NCBI GenBank assembly: GCA_010015805.1
Contig: ML978121.1
Location: 372,001 to 436,000, forward strand
DNA: 64,000 bases
Reading direction: 5' to 3'
DNA from: Rhizodiscina lignyota
Taxonomy: Eukaryota
The position numbers were made by a program, and so were the translations under genes. Every line of letters starts with the position of its first letter. Position 1 is the first letter of the stretch. A model generated the notes under the pieces. That model searched no databases. It saw only the letters and a list, made by a program, of their open reading frames with translations, and had not been told where the DNA came from. This document shows positions 6,554 to 17,394 of the stretch, piece by piece.

Positions 6554-8641
6554 ATGCCGGAGTCTACGAATCTTTATGTAAATGGTGGCACTGCTGCCGA
6601 TGCCAATGAGGACATCTGTGACTATGACGGACCGCCAGCACCAGAGACAGATGAGTATGGCTACAGAATATCAGAGCACCCGATGGGGCAAAAACGAAGG
6701 CTCAGGGTCGTTTTCATGGGTGCTGGTGCCTCTGCTCTCCACTTCCTGAAGAAGGCAGAGGAGAAGATGGAAAACCTGGACATTGTGGTATACGAGAAGA
6801 ACCACGATATTGGCGGGACCTGGCTCGAGAACAGGCAAGAGCTTCGTGAACTCCGGAAACTTCTCGGTAACTGACATAGCACAGGTACCCTGGGTGTGCT
6901 TGCGATATCCCTTCAGTAAATTACCAGTTCACATGGAAGGTCAAGCTCTGGTCACATTACTGGTCCTACTCCCCCGAGATCTGGCGGTACCTGAAGGACA
7001 TCGAGCGCGAGAACAAGTTCATCGACAAATACATTAAGCTCAAGCACAAAGTCGAGCGGGCGGAATGGGACAACGAGGCCGGCCTTTGGAGATTCAAAAT
7101 CCACAACCTGGAGACCGATGAAGTCACTGACGACTCGGCTGATATCTTCATTAATGGCGGCGGCGTTCTCAACAAGTGGAAATGGCCGAATATTCCAGGC
7201 CTGCACGATTTCAAGGGCAAGCTGATGCACTCGGCGCGCTATGAAGAGGGCTACGACTTGAAGGGCAAGAAGGTTGCGGTCATCGGAGCAGGAAGCAGCG
7301 GCGTCCAAATTGTTGCCGCTATACAAAAGCAGGTCGACCATCTGTATCACTGGGTCCGCAGCCCCATTTGGATCACAGCTTCATTTGGTCATACTTGGGC
7401 AGGTAGAGACGGTGCCAATTTTGCCTGTAAGTCTCATTGAAGTTCCCCGCTACGAATGATGCTGATCCACATAAATCAGATACGCCAGAACAACTCGACT
7501 TCCTTGCAAAGAATCCCCAAAAGTACCTGAAGTACCGCAAACAGATCGAAAACGAACTCAATCAGCGCTTCAGATTCATTCTCAAGGGCTCTCAGGAAGC
7601 GAAAGAGGGCCGTGATTTCGCCATGGACCAGATGAAGCGCAAGCTCAAGAACGATCCCCGGCTATGCGAAAAGATCATCCCTAAAAATTTCAACCCAGGC
7701 TGCCGTCGCCCTACGCCCGCGCCCGGATACCTTGAAGCATTGGTTGAGGAGAACTCGACGATCTTTACCGACCAGATTGGCGGCATCGATGAGAAGGGCT
7801 TCACCGACAGCGAAGGCAAGCACTACGACGTCGACGTCATCATCTGCGCCACCGGATTTGACACGACTTGGAAACCGCAATTCCCATTGATCAACGGTAA
7901 AGGCGTTGACCTAAGGGACATGTGGGATTCGGATCAAGGCAACGAGGTTACAGCATACCTGTCCGTTGGCGTACCCACGTTCCCCAACTTCTACAGCTAC
8001 TGCGGGCCGTACGGTCCACTAGGACATGGAAGCTTCATGCCACTCATCGAGGCATGGACGGATTATTTCTTCCAGGTGATGACCAAGATGCAGACCGAGA
8101 ACATCAAGAGTGTCACGCCGAAGATGGACGCGTGCAAGCAGTTCCAGCAACATGCAGACTTGTTCTTGAAGAGGACAGCGTGGTCATCGGTAAGGTTGAA
8201 TTCGCGATTGCTTGTACGACGCGAAGGCTGACAATGCAATAGCCGTGCCGTTCATGGTTCAAGCAGGGCAAAATCGACGGCCAAGTCGTCATTTACCCAG
8301 GCTCCAGGATTCACCATCTCGAGCTCATTAAATCTCCGCGCTACGAAGACTATGACATTGATTACAGGGAAGAGAACCGCTTCGCATTCCTGGGCAACGG
8401 CTGGCACGTAAGGGAAGAGGACGGCCGTGATATCACCTGGTACTTGGGCAATCTGGATGAAGAGGGAAGGGATATCCAGCCCGAATATGGAGATGAACTG
8501 CTCAAGGTTCTGGCTGGCACGGTGCTAGCTGATGACCAGTATGTTAGCGCACAGAAGGGTAATCTGCATCTTGACGAGAGTGATGCGGACTCTGGAGTCG
8601 GCCTTGATGCTGGCAATGAGGCGGAGGCTGTGTCGGCTTAA
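6554..8641 (+). CDS. Baeyer-Villiger/flavin-containing monooxygenase (StcW/MoxY-like)
   Basis: Motifs GAGASA, GGTWLENRYPGCACD (across GC-AG intron 6835-6884), FxGxxxHSARY, VAVIGAGSSG, PGCRRPTP and DVIICATGFD. Further introns at about 7427-7479 and 8190-8241; stop at 8639-8641. Confidence 0.92.
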
Positions 8642-10228
8642 GAGTGGATGGTGATAATCAGATAGTGTGGGTGAGACAGATGGAGATGTGGGCGACCCAT
8701 GGTGTGGCGTTTTATGCAAAGATCGGATCATATACACTGCTTTCAGCGCCTCATACATGTAACTGTTCTCTACCAAGGTTCTTCCTTGCAAGTGAATCTT
8801 TTTATAGTTCACGTGACTAGGCCAACGCTGTGGTTTCTAGCAGAGCCGCATCCGCACCGTTTGCAATCCAACCTCACCTCCTCATGCTCCCAACCGATAC
8901 CAGACACGAAGCGTCCACTGGGCTTCACAAACGTGTCATTATGGGCAATCCATGCTTTACTGCCCGGAATAAATCATCTAAAACGCACAGTCTCATTATA
9001 AGCGTCGATGACTCCCGACAGGCGAAGTAAGGCAAGTGGAATGGTGCGCGCCTCATATTCACGGCCACGGGCCACCGAACGGAGGTTTGGGCCCTACGGT
9101 GAGATCTGTACCCTCTCGCCATGCGAAATGGCATGCTGACCCCGATCTTAGGCACGCCCACCCCATCTCTGGAGAACCCGGTCCGATTTGCAAGGAAGTC
9201 CATTGCCCGACGCGCGCGTCACAAGGTCACAACTCTCCGATAGAGACGCCTTTATCGCCGTTTTAACACCAATGCCAAAGACGCTGCCAGACCCGAGAGG
9301 AGAGCGCTTTGATCACCAGATACCGCTCTTGTGGAATCCACGGTTACCCAAGGTTTTGCCTGGCGCCGTCCCGCCATAACCGTTACCGGGCGCTTCTTGA
9401 ATAGCTCCGACGCATGCAAATACCGTTCGCAGCCTCGTCCAACAACAACTGCACGATGCTGCATACACGCTACCGTCTGCATCAAGGCTCTTCCGCGTGA
9501 TGTCCCTCTTGAATCGCAGCTATTTCTCACTTCCCGTTTCACTTCCTGCTTGTCTTCGTGCATCGTGGCGCAGCTGTCAAATCAAACGATATGCGCTTTC
9601 CTTGCGGTGAACGCCTGCCATGGGCTACCATTCCGACTCATCCCTTTCCTTCTTCATTATGTGTCGTACTATGTTCCTCACGATGTACCTCTACGCCCAA
9701 CGATCGGCTGGCGGTGAGAAGGTGAGTTTTCACTATCTCCATCACCTGGACCCCGGCCAAGCAACTGAGGCGAGTATCGTGCTACTCCTGCCACGCGTGC
9801 TCCGTGTACAAGGGTACGTCTGTGGATTGCTTAGACCGGGCACAGTGATGATCTCTTGCGGCCATTTTGCGAGAGGGTATGAGGTGGCAGCAAATGGGCG
9901 TTTAAACTTTGGTGATGATGAAATGGGGCTATCTTGAACCCGCAAGAGGAGCATCATTTTATGTACCAGAGTATAAAGGCTTCCAACTCCGTCACGATGG
10001 AATTGAACAGTACCGACAAGAGTTTCAGTCCTTACTTCATCTCTTCTCGCTTTCATTCGACCCATTTGGCTCGCTATTACATCTCCAATCTCGCAAAGTT
10101 GCATACAGTCCTCCAACTGTCTTGTAATTACCTCTCTCAAGTCCGTCACTTACCAGTTTCGGTTCGACACGCTGTTCTGCTACAAGCAAAAGCTCTGCTT
10201 CCGCCCACCTGAAGGATTCTCAAGCGCC

Positions 10229-10422
10229 ATGGCTACAGGCTCAGCTTCGGAACCTATTGTCTCCTTCTCAGACCTTTGGCTCTGCTGCCAGTGTGGTACT
10301 GGGAGCGTGACCAGCATTGACACGCATTGTCCCGTATGCGGACACGAGAAGTAAGGTCCACATACTTCAGTGTTCTCCAGCTAGACTAACCTTGGCGCAA
10401 CAGGTGTGGTTCCTGCACTTGA
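10229..10422 (+). CDS. 46-aa Cys-rich zinc-ribbon-like microprotein, copy A (MATGSASEPIVSFSDLWLCCQCGTGSVTSIDTHCPVCGHEKCGSCT)
   Basis: GCCATGG start context. Exon 10229-10350, then a 53-nt intron 10351-10403 (GTAAGG...GACTAAC...CAG), then exon 10404-10422. Its paralog has the same exon length, intron phase and intron length. Missing from the ORF track. Confidence 0.85.
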
Positions 10423-12187
10423 TCTCCTCCTCAATGTCTTCTAGAAAAGATGTTCAAGGTTAGCTAAAGAGGTGTTATGGTCGGCTCGAGGGCGAGGTGA
10501 TACTCAATATGAGTTTCTGGGATCAGCTTTCTCTTCTTTCTTGTTTTATTATCAAGTTGCCAGGAGTGGCATCCATTCTTTACACTGAGATGCCGAAAGA
10601 TAGAAGGGTGCTGATGTTACTTCCCCTTCTGTGGCTTAGAGGGGCTGTTAGAACGATCTGCTATGTCTGATTTCCTCGCGTATGCTGTTCTGACGCTCAT
10701 TTGCTTTGCTTGGGGCCCCACTTGGTAGCCATAGATAGCGGACTCACGCCCTAATGGGATCACGAAATATAAACTTGTATGGGGAAATTAGTGCCAATTC
10801 ATTAACTTCGGTCTATTCTCGTGAAAGTTGCTGGGCAATCGTCAGTGGAACAGAAATTTACAAATAATTTCCTTATGAGAGAGAACTTGAAATAAAAATA
10901 CGAAGTTCGACAACCCAGCCTTCAAGGCAGAGAGAAATAGAGAAGGTTCCTCAACTGAATAATTATGTGGACTCCGAATGAACGAGGTCAATTGAATCAG
11001 CCCTACGACAGCCAATGACGTGAGACGCCCCACTTGGGCTGGAAAGGGGCTTTCAAATAATTGATTTTTCCAAGCGCTCGAAACTCACCACGACGCGGCC
11101 ATAACTCAACTCTTGGACTTACTTAATTCACGCCTCGTTTAACCTGTAATTGGCGTCTAATCGTTCTTCCCTTTCTACGGAGCTATCCACCTCCGAGAGC
11201 TTGGTTGTAAGGCAGGCGACAAGAGTCGTACCACATGGCTAATATATGACCAGGTGCGCGGCCTCTATAAACTGCGAATGAAATTCGATCACCAGGCCTA
11301 TTCTCGATGAATTACGAATGCGGTTAAGGTTTCCCTGCCGCAGTACCGCTCTTAACGCCCGACTACGACTCTGTTAGCGCGCGGAGTCGCATCGTAGCCT
11401 TACCATACGCCGCACTTTTGCGGATTATTCTGCATCAAAACTTATCCACATGACTCCCTTTCTCGAATAGTGCGGCCTTATCTTTCCCGTGTCACCTTTC
11501 GCCTGTTACGCTTCGTGGCTAAGCTCTCACTTCACACTGTTTCCCAACTTTCCTTACGGTCAAGCCTGTCATACATTAACGAACCAACACGATCTCTACA
11601 TGTCTACCTTTCTCCATTATGGTCAACCAACTAAACTTACTGTAAAATACCTTACGCCCAATGTCCCTTTGGCGGTCAGAGTCAAACCGGCCTGCCGGTT
11701 CTCACCTGGCCAGCGGCCAAACAACATGGGCGCTATCGTCATTCGTGCCCTCGTTCAACGCGAGATTTGTGCGTACATTCATCGTCAACAGCATCACCGG
11801 GCGCTGCAATGGCATCCTCAGCCATGCTTCGCGGTGCAACATGAGGCGTGAGTAGTAACACAGGCGCTTAAGCTTTCGGCGGTGATGGATTGAGGCAGTC
11901 GTGAAATCTTGCGCTTCACTTTCAACTATCTACTATATGGACCTTCAGGAGGTCCATCATGGAGCTCGACAAGAGCAAGAACATCATCAGTCCTTACTTA
12001 CTTCACTTCTCTCTGTCGCTCCACCTCCTCTGTTGGCATTACTATCAGCCTCAACTCTTTTTCACACATTATTTCGGCTGTCTTGCGCTCACGCATTCAA
12101 AAACCTCAACCAACATCGCATCGACTGTCACATTGAGTGTCTGCCAAATCGTTCATTTCGGTCGCAGCACAACTATTAACGGGCACC

Positions 12188-12387
12188 ATGGCTACAAGCA
12201 CGATTCAGGAACCTGTTCCAGCCTTCAATGACATGTGGGTGTGTTGCCATTGCGGCGCTGGAAACTTGGACGCTCTCTACTCAGCATGTCCTCAGTGCGG
12301 ACACTCACTGTATGTATCTCGTACTTCTGTCTTGCTAGCTGCGCTAACTCTTTATGAACTAGATGTGGAAATTGCGGCCACACTTAA
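12188..12387 (+). CDS. 48-aa Cys-rich zinc-ribbon-like microprotein, copy B (MATSTIQEPVPAFNDMWVCCHCGAGNLDALYSACPQCGHSLCGNCGHT)
   Basis: ACCATGG start context. Exon 12188-12309, then a 53-nt intron 12310-12362 (GTATGT...GCTAAC...TAG), then exon 12363-12387. All 7 Cys, the His and the Trp are shared with copy A. Confidence 0.85.
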
Positions 12388-12989
12388 GTTTCTAGATCAA
12401 CTCAGCTTTGAAAGGGGGATATTCGAGGATATTCATCTGAGAAACTAGTGATGACACGAATTGGCCATTATCTGCTGACGGACATTCACTTGTGGGGTAT
12501 CTTTCGGTTCTCTGGTTGTTTTACTACCCCGTTGCCAGCATTGGTATCCGCTCCTTCTACTTTCATGGTGTCCCCTGCTCAAAGTATGGCGAGATACTAA
12601 TGGTTCTCTTCCTGGTTGTGCTTAACAGGATTTGCTATGAATGGTTTCCTTTGTTCAACTTCATGAACTACATTTTTCCATTCGTTTGCTCTGATTAGTG
12701 TACGGCTAGTTACACGAAAGATAGTGGACTCACGTCCTAATGGGGTCATGAAATAAACATGTATGAGGAAATTTAGTACTCCGCGCACTCTCGCGAAAGT
12801 TGCTAAGTAAAATCGTGAATGTGATGGAATGTTAAGAGTTATATGCTCGTGGGCTACAGCTTCCCTATGACCGTAACGAGTTTGTGAATTCTATATTTAC
12901 AGTAGAAGAAAAATATTCCTAGCCGAAACAACTGGACTTGATTCAATGAGGGTCTTTTCAAGCCACACGCGATCAGCCCTACGGCGACG

Positions 12990-13058
12990 GCCAATGACGT
13001 GAGGCATCCCACTTGCCAGAAAGCTTCCCAAAAATTAATTTTCGAAGGCAGAAAATTC
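12990..13058 (+). promoter_or_regulatory. Putative SQT1 promoter elements: overlapping CCAAT and TGACGT (CRE-like) motifs, plus AAAATT (RRPE-like) tracts
   Basis: GCCAATGACGTGAG at 12990-13003 (also present at 11011-11024), followed by AAAAATTAATTTT and GAAAATTCA, 140-200 bp upstream of a ribosome-biogenesis gene. Confidence 0.4.
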
Positions 13059-13193
13059 ATACACCACACAATCGCTTTCTGAACCTGCATCCTCTCTCCG
13101 AACCTCGAATTCTTTACACGACACATAGTTTAACCGACAGTTGACCTCGTCGTTGGGCTGAAGTGTCCGTACCACTGCGATCCCTCCACCACC

Positions 13194-14762
13194 ATGTCGA
13201 CGCACAACCCCCACAACACCGATCCTCAAGATGACGACCCTGAAGATGATGGCGACGCGATGCTCGATCCCGATGAAGCAGGCGAAGAAATCGAAAATGA
13301 TGGCGATGTAGCTATGGACTCGGATGACGAAGGCGACCCCAATGCACCCCTCGAAGAAATACAACTCCAGAACGACTCCGTCGCGCACTTCGACAAGCAC
13401 ACCGACAGCATATTCTGCATATCACAACATCCTGTGCACACAAATATCGTTGTTACGGGCGGAGGAGATGACGTCGCATATATCTGGGATAGCAGTTCAG
13501 GGCGACAAGAGAGGCCCGTTCTACCAACGAGCTATGAAAGTTCGCCAGCAGGAGGTGTGAAGGAGAGAGCAGGAATTGAGGCGACGCAGAAGCTGGACGG
13601 GCATACGGATAGCGTAAATGGTGTGGCGTTTATGTTTCCCAAGGGAGAATACGTGGTCACAGCAGGATTGGACGGCAGGTTAAGAGCATGGCGCGACGCT
13701 GCTGGAACAGGGCAGAAATGGGAGTTTGTGGCAGACGCACAGGAAGTCGAGGAGATCAACTGGATATCTGCGTGTCCAAGTCCTGCGCACCCGAACACAA
13801 TTGCGCTGGGTGCTAATGACGGGAGTGTGTGGATATACACGATCGACGCTTCGAACGCGCCAAACCCGCTCACGATCACACAAGCGTTCTACTTACACAC
13901 CGCAGCGTGTACTGCAGGTACATGGTCACCGGATGGCTCACTACTGGCTACGGTAGCGGAGGACAGCAGCTTCTACGTCTGGGACGCGTTCGGTGATGCT
14001 GCAGAGGCAGGACTAACAAGCGCAGGTCAAGGAGGTGGACAGACGGTTGTGGGATTGACGGAGGTGGACGAGCGGTTCAGAGTCGATGGCGGTCTATACA
14101 GCGTCGCTGTATCCCCGAACAGTTCCTTTGCGGCAGTAGGTGGGGCAGACGGCAATATCAGGATCGTTGGACTACCAAGATTAGGAGCTGCGGCGAGTTC
14201 ACAGGGAGCCGCAGGGCAAAGAGGAGGCGGCGCGAAGAATAAGGCAGCTGGTGGGAAGCAAGCTGGTGCTAAGGGATCTGCAGCCGCAGGTCAAGCAGGC
14301 CAGATACTGGCGAGCCTGCAAACGCAGGGTGAAAGCATCGAGTCGATATCATTTGCGCAGGCAGCAAATCTCACGCTTATGGCAACTGCGAGTGTGGATG
14401 GGAGCATTGCGTTGTTCGACTGGTCGCATAACTTTGCAGTGCGGCGGCATATCAAGGAAGCACACGAAGGGGAGGCTGTTATCAAAGTGGAGTTTGCACC
14501 TGCGGCCTCAATACCCGTGAATGCAGCGACAGCAGGAAGCGGAAGAGGTCCATGGCTATTAACGAGCTGTGGAAATGATGGCGTTGTAAGAGTATGGGAT
14601 ACAAGAGGCGGCACAGCAGCGGCTGGACAAGGGTTCCTGAGGCAGTGGCAAGGTCACAGAGGAGGAGGTGAAGGAGGCGGAGTGTTGGGATTCGTACAAG
14701 ATGGGAGTGGAAGAGTTGTGACAGCAGGTGACGATGGAATTGGTCTCGTTTTCGAGCCATAA
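13194..14762 (+). CDS. SQT1: WD40 60S ribosome assembly chaperone Sqt1/AAMP
   Basis: Intronless 522 aa. Acidic N-terminus, then LQNDSVAHFDKHTDSIF, VVTGGGDD, LDGHTDSVN and multiple WD repeats ending VVTAGDDG..LVFE. Confidence 0.88.
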   Translation: MSTHNPHNTDPQDDDPEDDGDAMLDPDEAGEEIENDGDVAMDSDDEGDPNAPLEEIQLQNDSVAHFDKHTDSIFCISQHPVHTNIVVTGGGDDVAYIWDSSSGRQERPVLPTSYESSPAGGVKERAGIEATQKLDGHTDSVNGVAFMFPKGEYVVTAGLDGRLRAWRDAAGTGQKWEFVADAQEVEEINWISACPSPAHPNTIALGANDGSVWIYTIDASNAPNPLTITQAFYLHTAACTAGTWSPDGSLLATVAEDSSFYVWDAFGDAAEAGLTSAGQGGGQTVVGLTEVDERFRVDGGLYSVAVSPNSSFAAVGGADGNIRIVGLPRLGAAASSQGAAGQRGGGAKNKAAGGKQAGAKGSAAAGQAGQILASLQTQGESIESISFAQAANLTLMATASVDGSIALFDWSHNFAVRRHIKEAHEGEAVIKVEFAPAASIPVNAATAGSGRGPWLLTSCGNDGVVRVWDTRGGTAAAGQGFLRQWQGHRGGGEGGGVLGFVQDGSGRVVTAGDDGIGLVFEP

Positions 14763-14823: not shown

Positions 14824-17394
14824 TCACTGTGTAACCGTGTCGAATGTGATTTTGTAGACACTCCTCCCCTTGTCGTCCGTCTTCACATGCTCCACGCCTC
14901 TTTCAGCAGCATCTAGATGGACGAGGGTCCTATCGTCACGCGAGGGCAAAATGATATGTAGCTCCTTCCACAGCGGTTTCCACTTCTTAATGTGTGCCCC
15001 AAAAGCGACACCCACCACTCCCTCTGCAATGCATGCGTAACGGATCGTGAATTCTGCAATGTCCGGCTCTGCAGATATTCCGTCGTCCTCATACCAAGTC
15101 GCACTGTACTCTCTGCTCGTTCTGCTCATCGGCGGGAATATCTCCACTCCTCGATAGTCGTCTGCGGGCAAGTTCGCTGGATTCTCGGGCTCTCCTGTTG
15201 AGAGAACTTGCACGTCTTTGCCGACTGGTATCGCGCCTCCACACTTCGCAATAGTGGGAATAGAGTCTTTCCATTTCGATTCAACAGTGGTCCACTGCCC
15301 GGCCTTAATGTGCTGGTATGGCGAGTTGAGGTTCAAATATCCGGGATCATCTTCGCCCTTCTTTGGCAGATATAGTCTTGTCGAATCAATGTTTTCTTCA
15401 TAGACTCCGCCAATCATGAGTGTGTCTCCGAACCAGAATTGTGTCTCGCCACTCTTCAAGCCTTCCGACCATACCTCAGGATCACTCTCGTAGCCCCAGC
15501 CCACCCATCGTTGCGGTGGCTCGGCATACAGGTGGCTTCGGAGTGCAAGGTTGTAGGTGTAAGGAATTATCTCATATCTTCTCTTAACAGCCTTCTTGAC
15601 CAGTGGTGTGATCTCCGGGTACATCCATGGTTCAATCACATCGCCCACTTTGTTGTCCTCATTGCTCGTCTTGAAGCAGTTGATCGCAAACCGGCTGGTG
15701 TGGCATGCTGTCTGTATCCACCTCAGCAAAAGCGCGGGGCTCGGTTGTGGTCCCTCGAATCCTCCAGTATCGTGACCATAACACTGCAGTAATGACATAC
15801 CGGCATTGAGCGCAAGAGCGTTGCCGCCCTTGAACGATGCCCAAGATGTTACGTTGTCGCCGCTCCAGGAAGATGCACAGTATCGCATTGTGCCAGCCGT
15901 TGCGCTACGTGTGAGAACAAAGGGTCGGCGGTTCGGATCCAGGTCCGTGAGGGCATCGTATGATGATTTGCCCATGAGCTCCGTATGCAGCGCTCGACCC
16001 CAGAGGCCGACCTTGTTGCTGTCGATACCCTGCTTGAGCAAGGCAATTTTGTTGCTCTGGATGGAGGGCTCATCCAAAGCACATTGCCAGTCATCGTTCG
16101 GGATGGTGTATTCGTTGTTGTCGTTCCAGGGCACATCTATTCCCAGCTGGGCGAGACTTTGTATACCGTCATACCACCATTTGAATCCGGCAGAGCTCGT
16201 AAAGTCGATGTGGCCTCCCTCGCCGCTTTCACCGCCGCCCGCACTCCAGAGTCGGGTCACGGCCGTTGATTTGGTCCGTGGATCGGTGAAGAATGCGTTG
16301 GCAGCAGCCAGCTTCTTGTACTCTGGATGATTGGCCAGCACGTATGGCTTTACATTTGCGATAAGCCGAATCCCGTGAGCATGGTAGGCATCAACGAAGG
16401 CCTTCGGATCGGGGAAGCGATGGTGATTCCAGGTAAACACGTTGCGTGTTTTTGGCTCAGTTTCGGCGACAGTATAGCCAGACGACATCTGAAATCCTGA
16501 ACACGGAATATCATATTCTTTCAACTTGCCTGCAAATTCCAGTAACGCTTTGTGTGCTGGCGGCTCATCCAGCATGGAGTATTTCATCCCTCCGGCGATA
16601 TAGCCAAAGGCCCAGCGTGGGACCAACCGGGGGTATCCGACCAGATCTGCGTAGGATCTGACAACATCTTGGATTGTCTTGCCGACAATGAAATATTGCT
16701 CCAGACCGCCATGATCCTGACGGTAGACTTTGTAGTGGCCCCACAATCCATCCATTTCCGAGCCAATTGAGTAGAAACCGCGGCTGTGGGAGGTCGAGAA
16801 CATGGCAACACATCCTTCAGGTGTTGCGGTGATCAGAAAGGGAATCACTTTGTATAGCGGATCAGATTTGTAGGCATTGTATCCGAAGCAGTCGGTTGAA
16901 GAAATTCTGAAAGCTCTACCAGAGAGGTCCATGGGGGCTGCCTTCTCGCCCAATCCAACGTGGAGTGCAGTTCTATTATACGCTGTATAGTGAGCAACTC
17001 CATCGCCGTCGACTGTGTATGAGCGGAACGGCAAGTCTTGATGGATTGGAGTATTCGAGCCATTGAGGGAAAGTGAGACAATTGGAGTATGGGTCCATTC
17101 AACTTGAGCAACGACATTTGCTGTCTTGAATGTCTGCTTTGGTCCTGGAACTACATTGCCATAGTCAAGAGTTGGTGCTGATTGTGGCTTTAGTTTCGAA
17201 GCACTTGGATGAGGTGGCAGTGGGTGGTCTTTGGTGGTAAAGGTCGCACGAAAGATGTTGTCTTCAATGACCTGAAAATTGAAAGTGCACTGGGAACCAT
17301 TTTCGGTGCTGCTTAATGACAGTGACCCAGAACTGAAATTTGAAGTTTTGTCATCAAGTTCCCAAGATTTCGGGACGAATTCATGCTGAGGCAT
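14824..17394 (-). CDS. Glycoside hydrolase family 31 (alpha-glucosidase-like, WNDNNE type), no signal peptide
   Basis: 856 aa, intronless. Motifs GLGEK, DPLYKVIPF, PRWAFGY, FPDPKAF, nucleophile motif PWNDNNE, RPFVLTRS, WSGDN and GHDTGGF. Confidence 0.92.
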   Translation of the reverse strand: MPQHEFVPKSWELDDKTSNFSSGSLSLSSTENGSQCTFNFQVIEDNIFRATFTTKDHPLPPHPSASKLKPQSAPTLDYGNVVPGPKQTFKTANVVAQVEWTHTPIVSLSLNGSNTPIHQDLPFRSYTVDGDGVAHYTAYNRTALHVGLGEKAAPMDLSGRAFRISSTDCFGYNAYKSDPLYKVIPFLITATPEGCVAMFSTSHSRGFYSIGSEMDGLWGHYKVYRQDHGGLEQYFIVGKTIQDVVRSYADLVGYPRLVPRWAFGYIAGGMKYSMLDEPPAHKALLEFAGKLKEYDIPCSGFQMSSGYTVAETEPKTRNVFTWNHHRFPDPKAFVDAYHAHGIRLIANVKPYVLANHPEYKKLAAANAFFTDPRTKSTAVTRLWSAGGGESGEGGHIDFTSSAGFKWWYDGIQSLAQLGIDVPWNDNNEYTIPNDDWQCALDEPSIQSNKIALLKQGIDSNKVGLWGRALHTELMGKSSYDALTDLDPNRRPFVLTRSATAGTMRYCASSWSGDNVTSWASFKGGNALALNAGMSLLQCYGHDTGGFEGPQPSPALLLRWIQTACHTSRFAINCFKTSNEDNKVGDVIEPWMYPEITPLVKKAVKRRYEIIPYTYNLALRSHLYAEPPQRWVGWGYESDPEVWSEGLKSGETQFWFGDTLMIGGVYEENIDSTRLYLPKKGEDDPGYLNLNSPYQHIKAGQWTTVESKWKDSIPTIAKCGGAIPVGKDVQVLSTGEPENPANLPADDYRGVEIFPPMSRTSREYSATWYEDDGISAEPDIAEFTIRYACIAEGVVGVAFGAHIKKWKPLWKELHIILPSRDDRTLVHLDAAERGVEHVKTDDKGRSVYKITFDTVTQ

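Follow-up and report, generated by a model that had tools for sequence, protein, structure and literature searches.

Does a stretch of fungal DNA that seems empty between two larger reading frames hold genes, and if so, what would they encode? The question arises in Rhizodiscina lignyota, in a piece of contig ML978121.1 that is 64,000 nt long (the window; all coordinates below are positions in it). Here, an initial annotation made from the letters alone had proposed two minute spliced genes for metal-binding proteins; the two lie on the + strand, between a 202-aa open reading frame (ORF) that ends at 8231 and a WD40-repeat gene that starts at 13194. We consider it reasonably probable that these genes, called A and B in this work, are intron-bearing paralogs that arose by an old tandem duplication, and that each encodes one zinc ribbon of a fungal type with a cysteine doublet (CC-type); that the products act as competitors or adaptors is a guess.

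Two predicted short intron-split genes

Direct reading and recomputation of the sequence returned the arrangement described in the initial annotation, namely two genes with a 122-nt exon 1, a 53-nt phase-2 intron with a CTAAC element, and a very short exon 2 (Table 1); as a small correction, the TGA of gene A lies at 10420-10422. A gapless alignment of the two predicted proteins shows 21 of 46 residues to be identical, among them the Trp, seven Cys, and one His, again as had been claimed; exon 1 of gene A carries W17, C19, C20, C22, C34, P35, C37, and H39. A and B are the only copies of this gene in the window, where the DNA pattern of the first knuckle is found twice against an expectation of 0.18, a count reached in 2 of 100 shuffles. 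Both ATGs have the start context CCATGGCT in common, and the ATG-free leaders before them, at 232 and 229 nt, are the two longest of the 96 inter-ATG gaps in 8300-13193 (median 32 nt). A single two-ribbon gene running across both copies was ruled out, as a start context, a stop, and a promoter-like block are found with each of the two. Neither peptide has a signal peptide, and our best explanation includes products that would be cytosolic or nuclear.

Homology was used to choose between splice models. A hidden Markov model (HMM) was built from 20 rows of the family described below, with the window's own sequences left out, and was used to score every GT-AG intron of 40-150 nt as well as the unspliced form. 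For gene A, the 53-nt intron ranked first of 57 models at 50.5 bits, followed by 46.9 bits for the next model and 43.5 bits for the unspliced form, the latter being the score of exon 1 alone. For gene B, the 53-nt intron was again the best of 56 models (53.7 bits; next 49.4 bits; unspliced 46.8 bits). Splicing therefore gains ~7 bits over the unspliced form in both genes. What exon 2 brings back is the Cys pair after the His, that is, the H-x2-C-x2-C ending of the family, which is absent from the unspliced products. Comparative evidence of this kind gives the gene models good support, and we believe that the genes are very probably real, spliced, and translated.

The two genes sit in units that are alignable well beyond the coding exons, with an identity of 44-84% per segment. 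The intron (47%) and the leader (46%) are the more diverged and the coding exons reach 60%, yet exon 1 and the intron are free of indels between the copies, and GT, CTAAC, and AG are kept at the same places. Of the 46 codons, 23 agree at position 1, 33 at position 2, and 25 at position 3, and position 2 lies above the 47% intron background (binomial p 6e-4). By the Nei-Gojobori method, the proportions of nonsynonymous and synonymous differences (pN and pS) are 0.36 and 0.61, and the corrected distances dN and dS are 0.48 and 1.27, giving an omega of ~0.38 that is indicative only, dS being saturated. Since neutral sites have reached saturation and codon position 2 has nevertheless been kept, we regard A and B, judged by their sequences, as old tandem duplicates under coding constraint. 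The purifying selection on eight potential ligands that the initial annotation had supposed agrees with this, given that all eight are kept and that codon position 2 stands at 33/46; the dN/dS comparison it had called for falls on the expected side of 1, with the saturation of dS limiting what the value can bear. Repeat-induced point mutation (RIP) was considered as the cause of the divergence and rejected, as there are 38 transitions vs 49 transversions and the RIP indices match those of the rest of the window.

A fungal ribbon family related to RanBP2-type fingers

When 1.84 billion protein representatives were searched with a profile built from the two exon-1 peptides, 59 proteins matched at E<=1e-3, four of them at E<=1e-10. 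Six of the 59 (P0008, P0014, P0032, P0042, P0043, and P0052) seemed to be unrelated proteins or generic ribbons and were dropped before later counts. Most of the others look fungal and measure 115-280 aa. Low-complexity linkers join their two to four ribbons, of which the N-terminal one reads D-[MVL]-W-x-C-C-x-C-G-x2-N ... C-P-x-C-x-H-x-[RK]-C-x2-C and is followed by one to three more. Of the 59 proteins, 23 contain the strict C7H pattern, with 28 instances among them, and 35 contain the CC knuckle. Across an alignment of 22 domain rows, both window peptides included, the Trp, five Cys, the Pro, and the His are invariant (22/22) and an Asn is nearly so; W-x-C-C-x-C ... C-P-x-C-x-H is present in both window peptides, and the Asn is retained in copy B but replaced by Ser in copy A (position 26). 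We are confident that A and B are members of this fungal CC-type ribbon family.

A search with the 22-row alignment returned 43 longer relatives (99-2000 aa) and two short ones (74 and 91 aa). Their source names are 'hypothetical protein' or 'uncharacterized protein', and UniRef names relatives from Massarina eburnea, Aplosporella prunicola, and Zopfia rhizophila 'RanBP2-type domain-containing protein'; Cladophialophora immunda PV07_07221 is another. Together with the 59 profile matches, these proteins bear out the statement that similar motifs occur in fungal hypothetical proteins of no assigned function. Our literature searches on double zinc ribbons in fungi, on small RanBP2-type fungal proteins, and on the relatives' locus tags found nothing on the family. 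Among single-ribbon relatives, the final 56 residues of P0004 come closest, with 46% identity to A and 56% to B when counted from the first Met; the N-terminal extension of P0004 looks like translated leader sequence. In P0078 and at the metagenome locus L005:439-1608, a CC-type ribbon makes up the very C-terminal end of ankyrin-repeat proteins that also have a GPIID-type winged helix, an architecture that we take to be reminiscent of fungal NLR-like proteins.

The annotated Ascomycota relatives have the same CC-type domain as the window proteins, with the same invariant residues and the same H-x2-C-x2-C ending. They differ in carrying two to four ribbons in 115-280 aa, whereas each window gene encodes one, and in that their domain is intron-less wherever DNA or ORF-only calls exist, whereas in the window genes an intron interrupts the coding sequence ahead of the last Cys pair. 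The products of A and B were not among the matches at 19-98 aa in a collection of 5.8 billion proteins, and a word-indexed search with peptide A gave no candidate at 22-72 aa. Because neither turned up in the former search, both products seem to be unannotated in that collection, which fits the expectation that annotation would miss them. The further idea of a stand-alone family did not hold, as the same domain is repeated in the 115-280-aa fungal proteins, closes the ankyrin proteins, and belongs to relatives that UniRef already names. The supposed hidden family comes down to the smallest, intron-split version of a fungal domain that is common, namely a ribbon like that of RanBP2 to which four ligands have been added. 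PF26652 (Zn_ribbon_double, Pfam 38.1) is a lead only: the Atlas look-alike that carries this label, an Ascomycota cluster of 225 aa named 'Probable double zinc ribbon domain-containing protein', scores 0.76 with a window peptide and 0.81 with P0017, both below the level counted as more than a lead, and our literature search found no mention of the accession.

Structure prediction may point in the same direction as the RanBP2-type names. AlphaFold2 models of the exon-1 peptide of gene A (mean predicted local distance difference test score (pLDDT) 78.7, core 88-89) and of the P0004 56-mer (mean 71.5, core 85-87, tail 53-68) both show two short beta-hairpins, and their best structural neighbours are the fingers of Nup358/Nup153, TAB2, Npl4, MDM2, RBM5, FUS, and ZRANB2. 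Foldseek gave no match to the PDB at E<=1e-3, and a sequence search of the PDB gave knuckle-level matches only (best E 0.069). When the CC-type ribbons were compared with the plain four-Cys (C4-type) ribbons of the same proteins, hhalign returned a probability of 97.9% (E 3e-13), and 8 of 11 C4 ribbons reached the RanBP2-type model PF00641 at E<=0.1 (best 2.4e-4). On this comparison, we conclude that the CC-type domain is homologous to the RanBP2-like four-Cys ribbons with which it shares its proteins.

The likeness to RanBP2 and NZF ribbons with extra ligands, as first noticed in the initial annotation, can thus be made precise. With the RanBP2-type finger of ~30 residues, the window proteins have W-x-C-x2-C ... 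C-x2-C in common, and copy B and the family share the Asn as well. To this, the window domain adds four ligands: the CC doublet, a His two residues past the fourth Cys, and the final Cys pair. As given in PMC7154859, the RanBP2 consensus is W-x-C-x(2,4)-C with an Asn three residues past the second Cys and six residues from there to the third Cys; both window proteins have seven between the Asn position and the third ligand. RanBP2-type fingers are also parts of large proteins, whereas the window ribbon stands alone at 46-48 aa. The architecture is therefore RanBP2-like, yet by curated criteria the domain is not a RanBP2 member. Ubiquitin binding, which had been suggested as an adaptor function, does not fare well. 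According to PMC11372445, the NZF signature for it is Thr-Phe/Tyr directly after the second Cys, and the second C-x2-C also includes a hydrophobic residue. The window peptides have Gly-Thr and Gly-Ala in place of Thr-Phe/Tyr (family consensus Gly-x), so that binding of ubiquitin in the NZF manner appears unlikely.

A probable second metal site and competing explanations

The four added ligands do not vary independently. The 73 family proteins examined have 130 ribbon instances. In these, the CC doublet was accompanied by the His in 71 cases and lacked it in 4, and ribbons without the doublet had the His in 15 cases and lacked it in 40 (Fisher p 1.5e-16). Two of the four exceptions, P0017 and P0019, are artefacts of a non-greedy pattern, and in P0071 the His lies one residue further. 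Two Cys follow within eight residues of the His in 58 of the 75 CC instances, as they do in the window proteins only when spliced. Another 13 of the 75 have one Cys past the His, and 12 of these 13 read H-x-[RK]-[DG]-x2-C (Asp 11, Gly 1), so that in most one-Cys instances Asp is a possible ligand in place of the first Cys. Because the extra ligands co-occur in an all-or-none fashion across the family, we infer a second four-ligand metal site made up of C2, the His, C7 or Asp, and C8. Two metal ions per domain seem to us fairly likely on these grounds; what the initial annotation had put forward as two-zinc binding is kept here in this weaker form, drawn from ligand co-occurrence. Given metal binding, the metal is most likely zinc rather than iron.

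Based on these observations, we propose a model for the two proteins. Cys 1, 3, 4, and 5 of the ribbon core (W-x-C1-C2-x-C3 ... C4-P-x-C5-x-H) would hold one metal ion as in RanBP2-type fingers, and C2, the His, and the two Cys of exon 2 would hold an adjacent second one. The protein would therefore fold only if metal-loaded and only if spliced. Our guess is that the folded module is a small binding surface and not an enzyme, and that a free single ribbon may occupy the same partner, be it a protein or a nucleic acid, as the multi-ribbon paralogs, thereby acting as a competitor or adaptor. Such a non-catalytic module that shares its partners with the multi-ribbon paralogs, competing with them or adapting them, is the least supported step of the model and is offered as a tentative suggestion that may well prove wrong. 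We think it unlikely that the second centre is a labile 3Cys-1His site (with easily lost zinc, iron, or an iron-sulfur cluster) and that the proteins are metal- or redox-gated microProtein switches which titrate the partners of the multi-ribbon paralogs.

Several observations weigh against this reading as a whole. None of the 22 CC-type rows matches PF00641 at E<=0.1, and in Pfam scans, which for the window products covered the exon-1 peptides, these peptides reached no family at its gathering score and did not reach PF00641 (gathering score 27 bits) even at E<=10; their Pfam matches were generic zinc ribbons, all sub-threshold. The saturation of dS makes omega an unreliable witness to constraint. 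The last Cys pair is encoded contiguously in four fungal-like metagenome loci that a degenerate DNA pattern picked out, so that the intron is not common to those; for this reason we regard it as probably lineage-specific, and it would predate the duplication. As to the identity of the metal, the N-terminal ribbon of one relative, P0007, passes the gathering score of PF21349 (RUBY_RBDX), the rubredoxin-like domain of rubrerythrin and an iron site (36.4 vs 26.5 bits).

The last point belongs to an explanation in which redox-active iron occupies the second or both centres, as rubredoxin-like Fe(Cys)4 or as a 3Cys-1His iron-sulfur (Fe-S) cluster, and the proteins are electron carriers or sensors of redox state or iron. 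Rubredoxin-type sites have the knuckles W-x-C-x2-C-G and C-P-x-C-G too, PF21349 is reached at E<=0.1 by 4 of the 22 CC-type rows, a bacterial rubrerythrin matched our degenerate DNA pattern, three relatives were auto-named 'rubrerythrin' by JGI, and labile Fe-S sites with three Cys and one His as ligands are known. However, PF21349 gives peptide A only 8.6 bits (E 1.8; cut-off 26.5) and does not match peptide B, the best fold neighbours are eukaryotic RanBP2-type zinc fingers, and the family looks eukaryotic and cytosolic, a setting in which ribbons of this kind usually hold zinc. In addition, the PF21349 domain, for all that it has the same two knuckles and is reached or passed by some family ribbons, is a bacterial and archaeal Fe(Cys)4 site fused to a di-iron four-helix bundle and has no final Cys pair. 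Taken together, we hold iron to be improbable. The metagenome locus L001:115-699, the fifth locus found with the degenerate pattern, encodes a bacterial rubrerythrin with W-x-C-C-x-C-G ... C-P-x-C-x-H. The presence of the knuckle pattern in such a protein probably explains the JGI labels, which look like a misnomer on three fungal members that are without the di-iron domain.

The remaining explanations concern whether A and B are functional genes of the structure proposed. That they are decaying relics or never-expressed copies, with open frames and splice-like signals as leftovers, would account for the failure to find either product in the large protein collection and for the loss of the nearly invariant Asn in copy A. 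Relics would not be expected to keep eight ligands, a start context, splice signals, and leaders without ATGs, with no indel in exon 1 or the intron, in the face of saturated neutral sites, nor to keep codon position 2 preferentially, nor to yield spliced products of 50-54 bits on the family-only HMM; we therefore consider this unlikely. Expression without the proposed splicing would give a 41-aa product of gene A that ends just past the His and an 86-aa read-through product of gene B. Both frames are indeed open from the same ATG and still score well with the family HMM, but these forms are without the Cys pair past the His, of which the family has the pair or a two-Cys variant in most CC-type instances, the 53-nt intron outranks all GT-AG candidates in both genes, and its signals have stayed in place although the rest of the intron has diverged, so that we give this alternative very little weight. 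Equally little is to be said for metallothionein-like buffers or stores of metal. The peptides are small and acidic (computed isoelectric points 4.7 and 5.1), have seven Cys each, and come as a tandem pair, but Cys make up only ~15% of their residues, their ribbon pattern, which is fixed and comes with a conserved Trp, Pro, Gly, and Asn, is common to multi-domain proteins and speaks for a folded domain rather than a thiolate cluster, and no metallothionein family was matched by the exon-1 peptides at E<=10 in Pfam.

Surroundings of the genes and significance

The tandem units contain more than the two genes (Table 1). Between 9997-10040 and 11959-12000, the copies have in common an ATG (M-E-L...) ~20-25 nt past the TATA-like element, followed by the block TCAGTCCTTACTT. 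A conserved upstream ORF starting with this ATG was rejected, as the likeness is limited to ~25 codons and then gives way to indels; judging by the spacing from the TATA-like element, the M-E-L ATG is probably upstream of the transcript start, and the region looks like a core-promoter or initiator region.

Further downstream, two conserved non-coding islands stand out when the units are compared. Island 1, ~310-370 nt past each stop, is 86% identical over 57 nt and thus above the coding exons as well as the intron and leader. No shared RNA fold was convincing on either strand, and a search of Rfam over 8300-13300 gave no match at E<=1; island 1 could serve as a 3'-end signal or as some other cis element. 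Island 2 (76 nt, 76% identity) could be a promoter element that was duplicated, given that its copy in unit B lies a short distance before the ATG of the WD40 gene.

Table 1. Predicted features of the tandem units, as positions in the window.
Feature	Position	Strand	Remarks
Tandem unit A	9900-11100	+	Promoter-like region, gene A, 3' flank; 1260 alignment columns shared with 11860-13080
TATA-like element upstream of gene A	9972-9977	+	TATAWA match in a block aligning with unit B; function presumed
ATG-free leader of gene A	10000-10228	+	Putative 5' untranslated region; nearest upstream ATG in any frame at 9997, 232 nt off
Gene A, coding sequence	10229-10350 + 10404-10422	+	46 aa; read and recomputed from the sequence
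Gene A, exon 1	10229-10350	+	122 nt; residues 1-40 plus 2 nt
Gene A, intron	10351-10403	+	53 nt, phase 2, GTAAGG..CTAAC..CAG
Gene A, exon 2	10404-10422	+	Finishes Lys codon, then C-G-S-C-T, TGA stop
Conserved island 1, unit A	10733-10789	.	Partner 12719-12773
Conserved island 2, unit A	10996-11068	.	CCAAT then TGACGTGAG; partner 12972-13042
Tandem unit B	11860-13080	+	Promoter-like region, gene B, 3' flank; aligns with unit A
ATG-free leader of gene B	11962-12187	+	Putative 5' untranslated region; nearest upstream ATG at 11959, 229 nt off
Gene B, coding sequence	12188-12309 + 12363-12387	+	48 aa
Gene B, exon 1	12188-12309	+	122 nt
Gene B, intron	12310-12362	+	53 nt, phase 2, GTATGT..CTAAC..TAG
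Gene B, exon 2	12363-12387	+	Finishes Leu codon, then C-G-N-C-G-H-T, TAA stop
Conserved island 1, unit B	12719-12773	.	Partner 10733-10789
Conserved island 2, unit B	12972-13042	.	150-220 nt before the WD40 ATG at 13194

Beyond the units, the WD40-repeat gene (13194-14762, + strand) encodes a protein of 522 aa with an acidic N-terminus and is apparently intron-less. It is followed on the - strand, at 14824-17394, by a gene for a glycoside hydrolase family 31 enzyme of 856 aa. On the other side, the 202-aa ORF (7623-8231) has no Pfam match at E<=0.01, and Pfam assigned no family to nine other ORFs of the interval.

The locus has no bearing on any long-standing open question. What it does provide is a worked example of tiny intron-split genes that are skipped by annotation based on ORFs and size, and of how a family profile can pick a splice model without RNA data. 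In addition, it gives a name and boundaries to a domain common in Ascomycota for which there is no curated model in the libraries searched and no solved structure. As the 46-aa form suits chemical synthesis, metal stoichiometry, nuclear magnetic resonance, and partner screens would be easy with it, and the results would carry over to the family. Finally, if the possibility of a labile second centre were true, the RanBP2 finger would have given rise, across fungi, to a class of regulators gated by metal or redox state that annotation has not recorded.

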